A program made the position numbers and the translations under genes. Shown one piece after another: positions 25,994-30,147 of a DNA stretch of 61,054 nt (position 1 is the stretch's first letter; each line of letters opens with the position of its first letter). Under the pieces are notes generated by a model. That model searched no databases, was not told the DNA's origin, and worked only from the letters and a program-made list of their open reading frames with translations. The DNA is from Devosia sp. (GTDB lineage: Bacteria; Pseudomonadota; Alphaproteobacteria; Rhizobiales; Devosiaceae): positions 1-61,054 of the forward strand of contig NZ_JAFKHD010000070.1 of the NCBI RefSeq assembly GCF_017307565.1, given 5' to 3'.

Positions 25994-26491
25994 TTGAGCA
26001 ATCCCAACCAGAAGTCGTTTCCCGTCACTTGGGACCAGTTTCACCGCGATAGCCGCGCTCTCGCCTGGCGCCTCGCCGGCCTCGGCACCTTTGACGCCGT
26101 CGTCGCCATCGCCCGTGGCGGCCTCGTTCCGGCAGCCATCGTCGCCCGCGAACTGAATATCCGCACCGTCGAAACCGTGGCCGCCAAGAGCTACGACCAC
26201 CAGAACCAGGCCGGCATCAAGATCCTCAAGGAAATCAGCCAGCCGATCCTCGACCTCGCCAAGAACGGCGGCAATATCCTGATCGTCGACGACCTCGTGG
26301 ACACCGGCAACACCGCCCGCGTCGTCCGCGAAATGCTCCCCGGCGCCCATTTCGCTACCGTCTACGCCAAGCCCAAAGGCCGCGAAATGGTCGACACCTT
26401 CATTACTGAAGTCAGCCAGGACACCTGGATTTTCTTCCCCTGGGACCTCGACGTCGCCTACGTCGCCCCCATCTCCGGCGGCACCGACTGA
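25994..26491 (+). CDS. gpt: Xanthine phosphoribosyltransferase
   Basis: [36 protein letters not shown]; TTG start. Confidence 0.93.
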
Positions 26492-26559
26492 TCTATCCCG
26501 CTTATCCCCGCCCCAAGCGCCCATGACACCCTGCCTCCGCATCAAAGCGGGGGTGGGAA

Positions 26560-27915
26560 ATGGCGAGACTATCGAAGAAGCTTGAAGAGAAGCGAGCCGA
26601 GCTCGCCAGACTGATCGAACGCAAGGCGTTCGACGCCTATGTCAGGTATGGCGCCGTACCCGACGATTTCCATCGGCTCGCCGAGACCGCAGCCGACGGC
26701 CAGAAATTCCTCGACCTCTGCGCCGGCCTGTCCACCAAGGCTCTCCCAGAAGGCCGTCCTACCACCCACTACACCTGGCGCACAGCTGGCGACGATCGCG
26801 TCCGCCACGCGCACGCCGCCCTCGAAGGGCGGGTATTCGCTTGGACCAACGCTCCATCAGAAGGCCACCCCGGCACCGCGCCCTACTGCCGCTGCTGGGC
26901 TGAGCCGTACTATGGCAATCCCGCGCTCCCGGACGCTTCTCTCCAACTCGGGTCCGAACGACAGGTTGCCACTGATCCGTCTGAACTTTGGGCAAGTGTC
27001 GAAACACTCACGCGGCCGGATGGGAGCATAGCCGCCTCGGAGGTCATCATGACCGATGGCGCCTCCGTTCGATCGACCTTTGCCGGTCAAAGCGTTTCGC
27101 AGGTCGTGGTCATGCCAAACGCCACGTTTCTGGAGGCTCATCGAAACGCGCAGGGTGAGCATATCTCTCTCGGCCGCGACGGCGAGGTGCTCGCGCGGGT
27201 CGCTTGGCTCCGCAGCGCGCTTACGCGCGGCCCTCTTGTCGCCCCACCGGCCGTGCTGGCGATGCCGAAACCTCCCGCCGTACCGAGCGATGCGCTGGCG
27301 GACACCTGGCTCGCATCGCCTTTTGCCATAATGGTTCGGGGCGCCCTTACGCTCTACAACGCCGCTGTGGCGCAACCTGGGCCGATGGGCATAGGCGACA
27401 CCGGGCTCGTCGCGCTCGCCTTCAAGGTTTGGGACGGCAGCAGAACTGGAAACTCTGTAACGGTCACGCAAGTCGCGCTCACTGCCGAACAAGTCGCGCA
27501 AACCTGCAAGCTGTTACCGGAGGTGCAGGCTCTAACCAACGAAGCAGCCGCAAAAATGAGTGCCATGCGACTCACCGCAACACCTCAGAATTTTGGGATT
27601 GCCGTTCATACCGAAGTTCACCGACAGATCACCATGCGGAAATTATTGTCTCCGGTTCAGTACGGCAACGTTCATCCCGAAATGTCGATCACGGGCGGAG
27701 GATTAACTAGCATAGATGGTGACGTATACTATGGGCAGGCTGAGACATCACGCCTAGATGTCTACGAGAGAGTGAATGCAACCACGGCTTGCATATACGA
27801 TGTGAAAACTGGACGGAGAGGTCTTTCGCTCACCCGCACGACAGATTTGGTCAGCCGAACTACGAAAATCCCAGGGGTAACTAACGTGATCGTTCTTCAA
27901 GTCGGCATTCAATGA
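26560..27915 (+). CDS. MuF (phage Mu gpF-like) domain protein with C-terminal putative PD-(D/E)xK nuclease toxin
   Basis: YTWRTAGDDRVRHAH..L.G..F.W...HPG...CRCWAEP is the Phage_Mu_F signature; the C-terminus has FGIAVH...HPEMS...RLDVYE...IYDVKTG; GC drops in the 3' third. Confidence 0.75.
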   Translation: MARLSKKLEEKRAELARLIERKAFDAYVRYGAVPDDFHRLAETAADGQKFLDLCAGLSTKALPEGRPTTHYTWRTAGDDRVRHAHAALEGRVFAWTNAPSEGHPGTAPYCRCWAEPYYGNPALPDASLQLGSERQVATDPSELWASVETLTRPDGSIAASEVIMTDGASVRSTFAGQSVSQVVVMPNATFLEAHRNAQGEHISLGRDGEVLARVAWLRSALTRGPLVAPPAVLAMPKPPAVPSDALADTWLASPFAIMVRGALTLYNAAVAQPGPMGIGDTGLVALAFKVWDGSRTGNSVTVTQVALTAEQVAQTCKLLPEVQALTNEAAAKMSAMRLTATPQNFGIAVHTEVHRQITMRKLLSPVQYGNVHPEMSITGGGLTSIDGDVYYGQAETSRLDVYERVNATTACIYDVKTGRRGLSLTRTTDLVSRTTKIPGVTNVIVLQVGIQ

Positions 27916-28649
27916 CAACCATTACAGAAGTCGCCCAGTTAGCCTCGCCGTTTCTCCGGGACTACCCTGATTTTGTTATGGAGAAGCGGGAGATTTTTCG
28001 GACGCCGGTTCGTCACCTCGTGGTGGGCTTCTCGTTTGGCCCGCCCCACTACAAGGGCGAAGTTGACCTCTATTGGCGAGTCGAATTCCTATTCTCGCCG
28101 CCAAATTTTTCGGTCGGGATCGGCAGGCAGATCGATGGGGCACACGGTTTTCTCGGGGAGGATCCGACTTTGCCAGCCAGGGTGCGCGCAGAGATGGAGC
28201 GCGCTGCGAGCGAAGTTATCGTATCAGGTACGTCGCTCGACAATATGCTGTCGGTCCAGCAGCACATGAACCCCTATGCGGGGATGTCCTACCCGAGCCA
28301 GGCACTTCTACACGCTGCGCTTGGCAGATTCCCAGAAGCCCGCGCTGTTCTGGAAAAGTACCTCGACCTGAATTGGGCGGATGCCAATGCCTACGGTGCC
28401 TCTCCATCGGTGGTCATCGGTTCCAAAAAGTCGGAAAGACGGCAGAGGTTCAAGGTCCAATGGCTTGAGAACCTCGGAAACCTCGATGCCCTCCGTATAA
28501 TGCTCGCGGAGGAAGACCCGGCCCCTGTCGCGGCGCTCTTGCATGAATGGGAAGCGATGAACGTCCAGGTCCGAAAACTTGAACGCTTCTGGCGACCTTC
28601 GCCGTTTCCGTTCGAGAGCAAAGTAGCCAGCGCGAACGGTCCGTCATGA
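27912..28649 (+). CDS. Putative cognate immunity protein
   Basis: ATGA overlap with the toxin stop; 245 aa; no recognised family; paralogous to the next gene. Confidence 0.6.
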   Translation: MTTITEVAQLASPFLRDYPDFVMEKREIFRTPVRHLVVGFSFGPPHYKGEVDLYWRVEFLFSPPNFSVGIGRQIDGAHGFLGEDPTLPARVRAEMERAASEVIVSGTSLDNMLSVQQHMNPYAGMSYPSQALLHAALGRFPEARAVLEKYLDLNWADANAYGASPSVVIGSKKSERRQRFKVQWLENLGNLDALRIMLAEEDPAPVAALLHEWEAMNVQVRKLERFWRPSPFPFESKVASANGPS

Positions 28650-29371
28650 CTACTGCGGCGGAAGTAAAAAGACGGCTGAAGCCGCTCCTAAAGCATCGTC
28701 CCGATCTGGTCCTGGTCGGTCGCAATCTGGTCATTCCACCCGTCCATCATGTCCTGCGGGGTATCTTTTTTGATGCGTCTTGGGACAAACATCTGTGCCG
28801 GCCAATCTGGTACGCCGGTGCAATGTTCATGTACAATCTTGAGAACGACTCCCCGCCGTTCGACATTCATGAGCAATATTCTCTGCAACGGTCCAATGAA
28901 GAGGACTTTTCCTCACTGTGATGGCCAAGACCGAGGCAGTTCTCCAATTCGATTTCTCGCGGGTTTATACGGTTGAGCAGTACATCAACTTTGGCAAAGA
29001 CGCTGAAGTGGAAAACGATGGTAGAGATAGCCGCATCATTCCCCATCGGCCCTTTCACTATGCCGTCGCTCTCTCGGCGCTGAGCGATCTGGACGATGCC
29101 GAGCATAAGATGGTCGCGGCGGCAGCTTGGTGGGAGAGGGGCTCGATTGCGGCCGCACGGCGTGCGGAAGAGTGGCGTGCCAAAGGAGCCGTGGCCATCG
29201 CTGAGCGATGGCGTAATGGCGCGCCGTCTGGGGGCCTTGCGAGACCTCGTTCAACGCCGGGGCCGCGCCGATATAGGAGACCTTTTGCGGTCTTGGGAGC
29301 TCGACCGGGCAAAAGCGCTCAAAATCGACCATCCTTGGGAGCCTACGGCGTTTCCCGTCGAGATGAGTTAA
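28646..29371 (+). pseudogene. Frameshifted paralogue of the putative immunity protein
   Basis: N-terminus (MTTAAEVKRRLKPLL...PVHHVLRGIFF) and C-terminus (LLRSWE...WEPTAFPVE) match 27912-28649; split over ORFs 28646, 28918 and 29096 by two frame changes (about 28917 and about 29200). Confidence 0.7.
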
Positions 29372-30045
29372 CCCCGCTTCACGCCCAGCCAAATGACATG
29401 CCGCGCGCCCTTGCCGCCGCTGCGTGCGCGCACCTTCACTTCATCTACCACAAAACCCGCAGCAGCCAGTCGCTTGGCGAACGGCTCGCTAGGATGCGCC
29501 GACCAAACCGCCAGCACGCCACCCGGCCGTAGCGCCGCCCATGATTTCCTGAGCGCCGCCGTGCCATAGAGCTGATCGTTTTGCTCCCGGCTCACCCCAT
29601 CTGGCCCGTTGTCGACATCGAGCATGATGGCGTCGTAGGCCCCTTTGCCCGCCGCGATCACCTTGCCGACGTCGTCATTGATAATCCTCACCCGCGGATC
29701 ATCGAGACAAGTGCCAAAAACCGGGGTCAGTGGCCCGCGCGCCCAGGTGATGATCTCGGGCACCAGTTCGGCAACGACAAGCTCGCTGTCCGCCCCAAAA
29801 CACCCCTGCGCCGCGCGGAGGGTAAAACCCATGCCGAGCCCGCCAATAAGAACCCGCGCCTTCGCGCGTCCGCCGATGCGTTCGGCGCTGAGCGTTGCGA
29901 GGGCCTCTTCCGAGCCACTGAGGCGACTGTTCATCAGCTCATTGGTGCCGAGCATGATGGAGAATTCATCCCCGCGCTGCATCAGTTTGAGCTGCGTCTT
30001 GTCGCCCGGCACATTCGCCGTATCGAGATGGATCCAGGGTCTCAT
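29368..30045 (-). CDS. Spermidine-synthase-like SAM-dependent methyltransferase
   Basis: ELMNSR.SGSEEALA, LIGGLGMGFT, DAIMLDVDNGPDG. Confidence 0.85.
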   Translation of the reverse strand: MRPWIHLDTANVPGDKTQLKLMQRGDEFSIMLGTNELMNSRLSGSEEALATLSAERIGGRAKARVLIGGLGMGFTLRAAQGCFGADSELVVAELVPEIITWARGPLTPVFGTCLDDPRVRIINDDVGKVIAAGKGAYDAIMLDVDNGPDGVSREQNDQLYGTAALRKSWAALRPGGVLAVWSAHPSEPFAKRLAAAGFVVDEVKVRARSGGKGARHVIWLGVKRG

Positions 30046-30062
30046 GAGCTCTCGCAGGGGAT

Positions 30063-30147
30063 TGGTGCGGGCGACGGGAATCGAACCCGTACAGCGTTAG
30101 CCGAGGGATTTTAAGTCCCTTGTGTCTACCAGTTTCACCACGCCCGC
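30063..30147 (-). tRNA. tRNA-Leu (anticodon TAA)
   Basis: GCGGGCG...TGGTAGAC, anticodon arm AGGGA-CTTAAAA-TCCCT, long variable arm, GGTTCGATTCC, encoded CCA; 85 nt. Confidence 0.97.

Follow-up and report, generated by a model that had tools for sequence, protein, structure and literature searches.

A chromosomal cassette in Devosia encoding a predicted short-MuF nuclease toxin and its probable immunity protein

The DNA analyzed here (the window) is the whole 61,054-nucleotide (nt) stretch of Devosia sp. contig NZ_JAFKHD010000070.1, positions 1-61,054 (assembly GCF_017307565.1). It holds a three-gene cassette on the forward strand whose first gene joins a short domain of the phage head protein MuF to a predicted nuclease tip. 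Gene 1 (26560..27915) is intact and encodes 451 amino acids (aa) with an N-domain of family PF04233. Gene 2 (27912..28649), also intact, encodes a 245-aa probable cognate immunity protein, and gene 3 (28646..29371) is a frameshifted orphan immunity allele. A first-pass annotation, made by a model from the letters alone, had described three genes joined by ATGA overlaps between gpt and a methyltransferase gene next to tRNA-Leu. The overlaps at the gene 1/gene 2 and gene 2/gene 3 junctions are present, but the third gene is not intact. The position is as described: gpt (25994..26491, forward strand, PF00156), the upstream flank of the main Devosia locus, precedes the cassette, and a spermidine-synthase-like methyltransferase gene with tRNA-Leu(TAA) beside it (29368..30147, reverse strand) follows it. 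Judged from comparative sequence patterns, the cassette is a host-domesticated minimal MuF toxin-immunity unit and not prophage scrap. The annotation had proposed the same, and fixed sites, purifying selection, and allele swapping carry this conclusion.

The N-domain of gene 1 (residues 1-121; 26560..26922) matches PF04233 with an E-value of 1.3e-9. The Phage_Mu_F signature that had been noticed near the N-terminus lies at residues 64-113, which score 39.2 bits against a cut-off of 29.6. Likewise, phrog_324 matches residues 69-130, and phage head-morphogenesis proteins share ~32% identity with residues 3-121. D78, H85, C110, and C112 are conserved. The N-domain covers approximately the PF04233 span only; the ~150 residues that lie upstream of the motif in phage MuFs are missing. 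The C-terminal extension is 339 residues long and has no Pfam match above cut-off. An AlphaFold model of the full protein (pLDDT 81.5) consists of N-terminal helices, the MuF motif, a beta-meander stalk, a disordered stretch, and a compact tip. The stalk (residues ~126-234; 26935..27261) is modeled as a single-sheet beta-meander for which a structure search returned generic meander matches only (Z<=7.1). The region before the tip had been called a linker; this description suits a short disordered stretch (residues 219-250), but the region is mostly folded.

The tip (residues 305-451; 27472..27915) has a guanine-plus-cytosine content of 0.51, compared with 0.62 for the window, and its model when folded alone reaches a pLDDT of 94.3. 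It had been likened to restriction-endonuclease-fold toxins, and this likeness is borne out by structure comparison. Every one of the top 10 VIA rows is a chain with the restriction-endonuclease fold, Cas4, ACE1, BglII, AddA, and McrC among them. The best match, Cas4 4r5q, has a Z of 6.0 (root-mean-square deviation 3.1 over 103 residues), which is below the tool's warning line of 8 and counts against the interpretation offered here, so the fold assignment is moderate. Foldseek, run on the full gene 1 model and on the tip, found nothing at E<=0.001, the tip's leading matches being of the same fold class. A sequence-profile search of the PDB found nothing relevant, an Atlas search with stalk plus tip gave only leads under 0.9, and PDDEXK_1 matched 6 of 26 tips weakly (best E 0.05). 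H350, E374, D400, and K416 are invariant across 47 homologues; E374, D400, and K416 are also invariant in a separate set of 26 sequences, and position 414 is D or E. The tip shares a G-x-x-x-H helix, an acidic motif I, and a D...D/E-x-K core with PD-(D/E)xK nucleases of the RecB/AddAB/Cas4 type and with Tox-REase tips, although no Pfam family reaches threshold for it. It is predicted to be a PD-(D/E)xK-fold nuclease with a full catalytic set (H350/E374/D400/D414/K416). Proteins from Bosea and from metagenomes (P0067, P0224, P0226) combine this stalk and predicted nuclease tip with a different N-terminus. This second carrier N-terminus bears a QPRVP-G-G-G-W-T motif.

A search for the toxin gene in 109 Devosia genomes matched 38, of which 30 were strong. 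Of the 30 strong matches, 23 are single and long, one of them truncated at a contig end, and the other 7 are broken or partial. The cassette occupies the gpt to tRNA-Leu interval in 22 cases and a second chromosomal site in 8, and the second-site flanks in the two genomes scanned are the pfkB and pyrF regions. The flanks scanned are housekeeping or cargo genes with no phage genes close by. In all five non-carriers examined, no cassette follows gpt, and tRNA-Leu lies within 0.02-0.8 kb. The annotation had considered that homologues might always lie inside prophage head operons; they do not, since no head gene lies near the Devosia loci tested. Compared with the four closest relatives, the N-domain has a ratio of nonsynonymous to synonymous substitution (dN/dS) of 0.10-0.18 at a dS of 0.41-0.49, similar to that of gpt (0.17-0.45). 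In three of the four, by contrast, the tips share only 37-43% identity. At the DNA level, three close relatives stop matching at 27026-27128, inside the stalk, and match again either beyond the cassette or where a partner gene is shared. In other words, the stalk is the site of recombination breakpoints for allele swaps. A Mantel test over 15 genomes, which are related and hence not independent, gave a rho of 0.45 for gpt with the N-domain, -0.07 for gpt with the tip, and 0.65 for the tip with its partner. Thus, purifying selection acts on the N-domain, which follows the chromosome, whereas tip and partner are replaced together between close relatives. A survey of relatives had been expected to reveal a conserved N-terminus with swapped tips and immunity genes. 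It did, but the tips in Devosia are diverged alleles of one fold and not different toxin domains. As a genomic pattern, this is the signature of a delivered toxin with allele-specific immunity.

The partner genes display the same organization. A partner of the gene 2 type lies immediately 3' of the toxin gene throughout the Devosia loci and measures 217-254 aa among the 34 copies listed. The family has no Pfam match over cut-off and none in PHROG, PADLOC, or NCBIfam. Its fold combines a distant DUF4304-like part with tetratricopeptide-repeat-like helices (Atlas TM 0.54 to DUF4304 clusters), and DUF4304 gave no literature lead. Complex prediction for the tip with gene 2 scored 0.17 against a mark of 0.32, which gives no verdict and is not used as evidence. 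Gene 2 probably encodes the cognate immunity protein of gene 1. Gene 3 is a paralogue of gene 2 with two breaks, a 1-nt deletion near 28916 and a 23-nt deletion near 29201, called relative to an intact allele that is 86% identical. The two breaks are seen again in contigs that the same study obtained from two other samples; in an independent strain (97% identical), the 1-nt break is present and the 23-nt deletion absent. In pieces, gene 3 shares 83-88% amino-acid identity with the gene after the toxin in two other loci (L036/L013), and its counterpart in the relative G050 is the cognate partner of a different tip allele. Another genome (G083) keeps orphans that are 81% like gene 2 and 83-89% like gene 3 in addition to its own partner. 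The partner family is present in 37 of 109 Devosia genomes, several of them without an intact toxin (G041, G045, G088, and G089, and also G104 at a second site). Partner genes are retained in 6 of the 7 genomes with a broken toxin. In Devosia riboflavina IFO13584 (L041:10001), ~240 bp comprising most of the MuF domain are deleted, and the partner gene is intact.

Two elements lie between gpt and gene 1. A promoter-like element (26501..26533, forward strand; CTTATCCCC with ~17-nt spacing, TGAGAnnnT in relatives) was found upstream of all 20 cassettes aligned and accompanies the cassette at both Devosia loci. The copy in the window has one change at an otherwise nearly invariant position, and because of this change an exact-pattern search missed the window. 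The element presumably acts as a promoter. Its core, CT(T/A)ATCCCCG (26501-26510 in the window), has 22 matches in this genome (G000) where ~5 are expected, an approximately fourfold over-representation. It precedes the gene transfer agent (GTA) cluster, DUF2793, and dnaB, as well as ilvD, phoH, trmFO, and lpdA, the last four being named by reading translations, and is likely a Devosia promoter element. The second element is a hairpin over the gene 1 ribosome-binding site (26530..26557, forward strand). All 20 Devosia leaders form it, although their sequences vary (z -2.8 to -6.0 relative to dinucleotide shuffles). A consensus hairpin did not emerge from RNAalifold, probably because the hairpin arms were misaligned, and per-sequence folding was used in its place. 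A short leader starting at the inferred own promoter cannot form the hairpin. It is likely that the hairpin blocks gene 1 translation from read-through gpt transcripts. RNA-library contigs span the cassette and its flanks alike and do not show expression.

On sequence evidence, the cassette is one member of a broader short-MuF toxin class that spans several alphaproteobacterial families. The MuF motif starts at a median residue of 71-73 in 62 chromosomal open reading frames (ORFs), compared with 223 in 74 IMG/VR ORFs, 4 of which are short. A profile search of 400 sampled alphaproteobacterial genomes matched 18, including 12 with N-terminal short-MuF toxins and 4 with a C-terminal motif. Two matches were dropped, one as spurious (G224) and one as an ordinary short phage MuF (G313). 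Among the top 150 cluster representatives, 139 have the CRC motif, and in 98 of these it lies within the first 150 residues and is followed by an extension of at least 100. No head gene was found close by among the 135 ORFs of 16 non-Devosia loci scanned out of 55. The 101 C-terminal extensions form 26 clusters, a few of which are frameshift junk. Tips on the same N-domain include a CDI EC869-like nuclease with CdiI downstream, colicin D with a colicin immunity gene, GH108, phage lysozyme, and pesticin-like, Tlde1, and colicin E3-like domains. The commonest tip accounts for 50 of the 101 extensions and has no Pfam family (L053, L057, L059, L062, L067, L072, L103; P0070 cluster). The gene after it usually has an N-terminal hydrophobic anchor, which suggests an unknown envelope-acting toxin. 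In a quick MuF tree on 100 columns, a 36-row group without canonical phage MuFs had an SH-aLRT (approximate likelihood ratio test) support of 86 and is a hint only. A reversed order with a C-terminal MuF motif was seen in three proteins (L256:7340-8593 in G391, L259:7499-8641 in G124, and L230:1399-2532 in G403). Their N-termini have an Ntox44 or lysozyme-like domain. Where this domain is Ntox44, LysM is also present, and the genomes encode VirB4 but lack HK97 head genes. In another protein (L262:7210-7929, G259), the short MuF is fused to a serum-amyloid-A-like domain (PF00277, E 4e-17).

How does the cassette compare with known systems? It resembles MuF polymorphic toxins (available text of PMC5576092, PMC3482391, and, for Bxa/Apk2, PMC11699363) in its N-terminal PF04233 (MuF1), C-terminal extension, and adjacent downstream partner. 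In the available text of Jamet et al. 2017, MuF toxins are said to occur in temperate phages and prophages only, 96% of bacterial muf genes being assigned to prophages or their remnants and 87% lying close to a portal or terminase gene (PMC5576092). In contrast, the Devosia cassette lies outside any prophage or head module and is inherited with the chromosome, its N-terminus is ~150 residues shorter, and its orphan partners represent multiple alleles. Its 245-aa partner also exceeds the <150 aa of theirs, a typical but not absolute feature. Tables S5-S6 of the same paper place two short-MuF proteins of Micavibrio outside a prophage, MICA_1514 with an ADP-ribosyltransferase tip and MICA_1769 with a peptidoglycan-binding domain, and neither is mentioned in its available Results and Discussion (PMC5576092). 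A description of a short-MuF class was not found in the literature covered, which leaves out most subscription papers. The cassette is also similar to contact-dependent inhibition (CDI), Rhs, MafB, and polyimmunity loci as available from Zhang et al. 2012 (PMC3482391). The likeness extends to a fixed locus, a conserved N-terminus, a tip and immunity gene swapped together, homogeneous orphan-immunity arrays, and a tip common to another carrier family. Its genomic pattern has the polymorphic-toxin features given there, namely, a variable C-terminus, a co-varying partner with orphans, and a tip found on other carriers. However, it has no linked type V secretion system, type VI secretion system (T6SS), or MafA export gene, its carrier is a phage head protein, and its tips are all alleles of one fold. 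By these sequence comparisons, the system would work like a MuF polymorphic toxin yet lies outside prophages; it is a putative chromosomal short-MuF toxin system.

A prophage or a GTA might supply heads for such a toxin. The annotation had stated that no prophage is present, and this holds for the window. Portal (PF04860), capsid (PF05065), and tyrosine integrase (PF00589) have no match anywhere on the cassette's contig, as had been claimed, and 134 GTA or phage-head queries gave zero tblastn matches in the window. It does not hold for the genome, whose other contigs have 4 portal, 6 capsid, and 2 further MuF matches together with a cluster like that of the Rhodobacter capsulatus GTA (RcGTA). 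In alphaproteobacterial prophages, an HK97-type portal fused with a full MuF domain was observed (G000:C35:17979-19910 and L056:8119-10158). Among 18 Devosia carriers, a T6SS is present in 1, strong VirB4 in 2 with weak matches in 2 more, and an HK97 portal in 16. T6SS and type IV secretion system (T4SS) were rejected as common carriers on these counts. The conserved portal belongs to the RcGTA-like cluster in the genomes inspected. This cluster comprises terminase, portal, protease, capsid, tube, DUF2460, hub, and the GTA_TIM megatron, and GTA_TIM occurs in 81 of 109 Devosia genomes. Since a GTA is encoded elsewhere in most Devosia genomes and a T6SS or T4SS is absent from most carriers, delivery in GTA or prophage heads is the favored guess. 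Devosia has the same cluster as the RcGTA-like agents available in print (Caulobacter GTA, PMC11150451; symbiont GTAs, PMC9254644), and toxin relatives in one family (f145) lie inside it. The GTA-cluster contigs of this genome hold no MuF, and the Devosia toxin is unlinked to the structural cluster. Literature searches pairing GTA with MuF, toxin/immunity, or minor head protein found no paper, most subscription papers being outside their coverage. RcGTA-like GTAs are not known to carry any protein toxin.

Contextual evidence for a head-borne route comes from relatives of the toxin. The GTA megatron gene is immediately followed by a short-MuF toxin gene in 7 of 10 carrier genomes (2 genera) of family f145, and genomes with these GTA-operon copies also bear stand-alone copies. 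At six loci (L244 at G252:C35:37000-46000, L255, L349-L351, and L355), a short-MuF toxin and a membrane-anchored partner lie between the GTA megatron and the DUF2793 region. In G252, an orphan CdiA-type RNase tip is also inserted in the GTA operon after the short-MuF toxin, and in G452 a short-MuF copy follows a solitary GTA-like capsid gene. Four further copies are located in prophage-like late regions (L056, L261, L109, and L157). L056 and L261 were rejected as GTA-linked, as they have DUF6456 plus terminase and look like prophage regions. By analogy, relatives inside GTA operons and prophage late regions suggest that loading in trans into GTA or prophage heads may occur in Devosia. SPP1 gp7 binds the portal and is present at 1-2 copies per head. 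MuF proteins more generally are described as binding portal and DNA (available text of PMC5576092 and PMC7290940), and 80alpha gp44 as ejected and DNA-binding (PMC7290940).

One model based on these findings is that the toxin, with a tip predicted to cut DNA, is loaded in trans into GTA or prophage heads and injected into neighboring Devosia cells without the matching immunity allele; the evidence leaves this model about evenly poised. Portal-bearing heads would be made from genes elsewhere, most likely those of the GTA and otherwise those of induced prophages. From MuF biology and the GTA-operon relatives, the N-domain would dock on portal or DNA during head filling and be ejected with the DNA. 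The leader hairpin would limit toxin translation, and gene 2 would neutralize the tip in an allele-specific manner. Recipients without the matching allele would be killed or stalled, and kin would survive and could use the transferred DNA. If non-kin are killed and kin spared, GTA release would be a kin-discriminating weapon. The narrower proposal, that the GTA specifically is the vehicle and that alphaproteobacterial GTAs double as toxin-delivery vehicles via the short MuF tag, is tentative and somewhat less probable. Several points weigh against the model. GTA_TIM is found in 18 of 23 intact-toxin carriers, which is no enrichment over the genus-wide count. G023 and G037 (99% complete) have an intact toxin but no PF05065 capsid or GTA_TIM, and 3 of 12 sampled non-Devosia genomes with N-terminal short MuF lack HK97 portal and capsid. 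Head or GTA genes lie near the locus in only 6 genomes, none Devosia, in a neighborhood test of 129 loci with flanks of unequal length. GTA co-regulation via the CTTATCCCC motif was dropped, because its core also precedes many housekeeping genes and is not GTA-specific. The 80alpha gp44 function is described as lost on truncation beyond a few residues (available text of PMC7290940), so a short MuF may not load. Finally, many relatives bear wall-hydrolysing tips or peptidoglycan-binding domains, and four genomes have the C-terminal motif, all of which suit an envelope route.

The next explanation keeps the polymorphic toxin-immunity system but has MuF co-opted as a trafficking tag for a non-phage route, be it vesicles, release by lysis, or secretion systems that vary with the lineage. 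It is unlikely overall. The GTA-less carriers G023 and G037 and the peptidoglycan-binding fusions among relatives are consistent with it, as is the C-terminal MuF after Ntox44 and LysM in three genomes with VirB4 and without HK97 head genes. VirB4 is present in 10 of 17 non-Devosia carriers and in 2 of 17 controls, and partners have an N-terminal hydrophobic stretch at 18 of 43 loci (a crude scan in which 14 had no downstream ORF). However, Devosia carriers have no secretion system in common, most toxins lack a signal-like hydrophobic N-terminus, and no transporter gene is linked to the loci scanned. Repeated placement in GTA and prophage late operons also argues against this route.

An anti-phage function is less probable still. 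Here, MuF would sense the portal or packaging machinery of an infecting phage and free the nuclease, or the toxin would be packed into progeny virions as a Trojan horse. The portal and DNA binding of MuF proteins would allow this, translation seems tightly blocked by the hairpin, and the GTA is dispensable in some carriers. But the three cassette proteins have no PADLOC match at E<=0.1 (library of 2023), the flanks are housekeeping genes with no defence island, and the putative phage-sensing N-domain is the conserved part rather than the fast-evolving one. Orphan partner arrays and partners without a toxin point instead to attack by other cells, and a Trojan toxin would be neutralized in immune kin. 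No evidence for the Trojan horse was found; the use of the toxin as a competition weapon fits the orphan immunity alleles better. A prophage remnant or a selfish toxin-antitoxin addiction module without delivery is very improbable: the patchy distribution (~30 of 109), the 7 broken copies, the decayed gene 3, and the nearby tRNA gene would suit it, but the N-domain is under purifying selection, distant Devosia carry the cassette at the same site without any further phage gene or integrase, IMG/VR, 50,697 phages, and 72,556 plasmids hold no full-length toxin match, and a toxin gene placed first, together with allele swapping, matches what delivered toxins show.

The short-MuF class is a chromosomal allele-swapping system in Devosia and several alphaproteobacterial families, and most Devosia carriers have no known export machine. 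If loading into GTA heads is correct, particles would kill non-kin and transform immune kin only, which would offset the cost of suicidal GTA release, and a ~120-residue portable tag would be available for loading protein cargo into GTAs. Why do costly, lytic GTAs persist? If GTAs carry toxins, kin discrimination and competition would be a testable answer. Cultured carriers include Devosia sp. Root685, D. subaequoris, D. marina, D. sediminis, and Afifella pfennigii, of which D. marina and D. sediminis are naturally GTA-less. The gpt to tRNA-Leu interval is itself a local hotspot. Unrelated cargo was also observed there at three loci (L044, L047, and L204), consisting of pantothenate genes, a bacteriophytochrome, a caspase-like protein, and an autotransporter.

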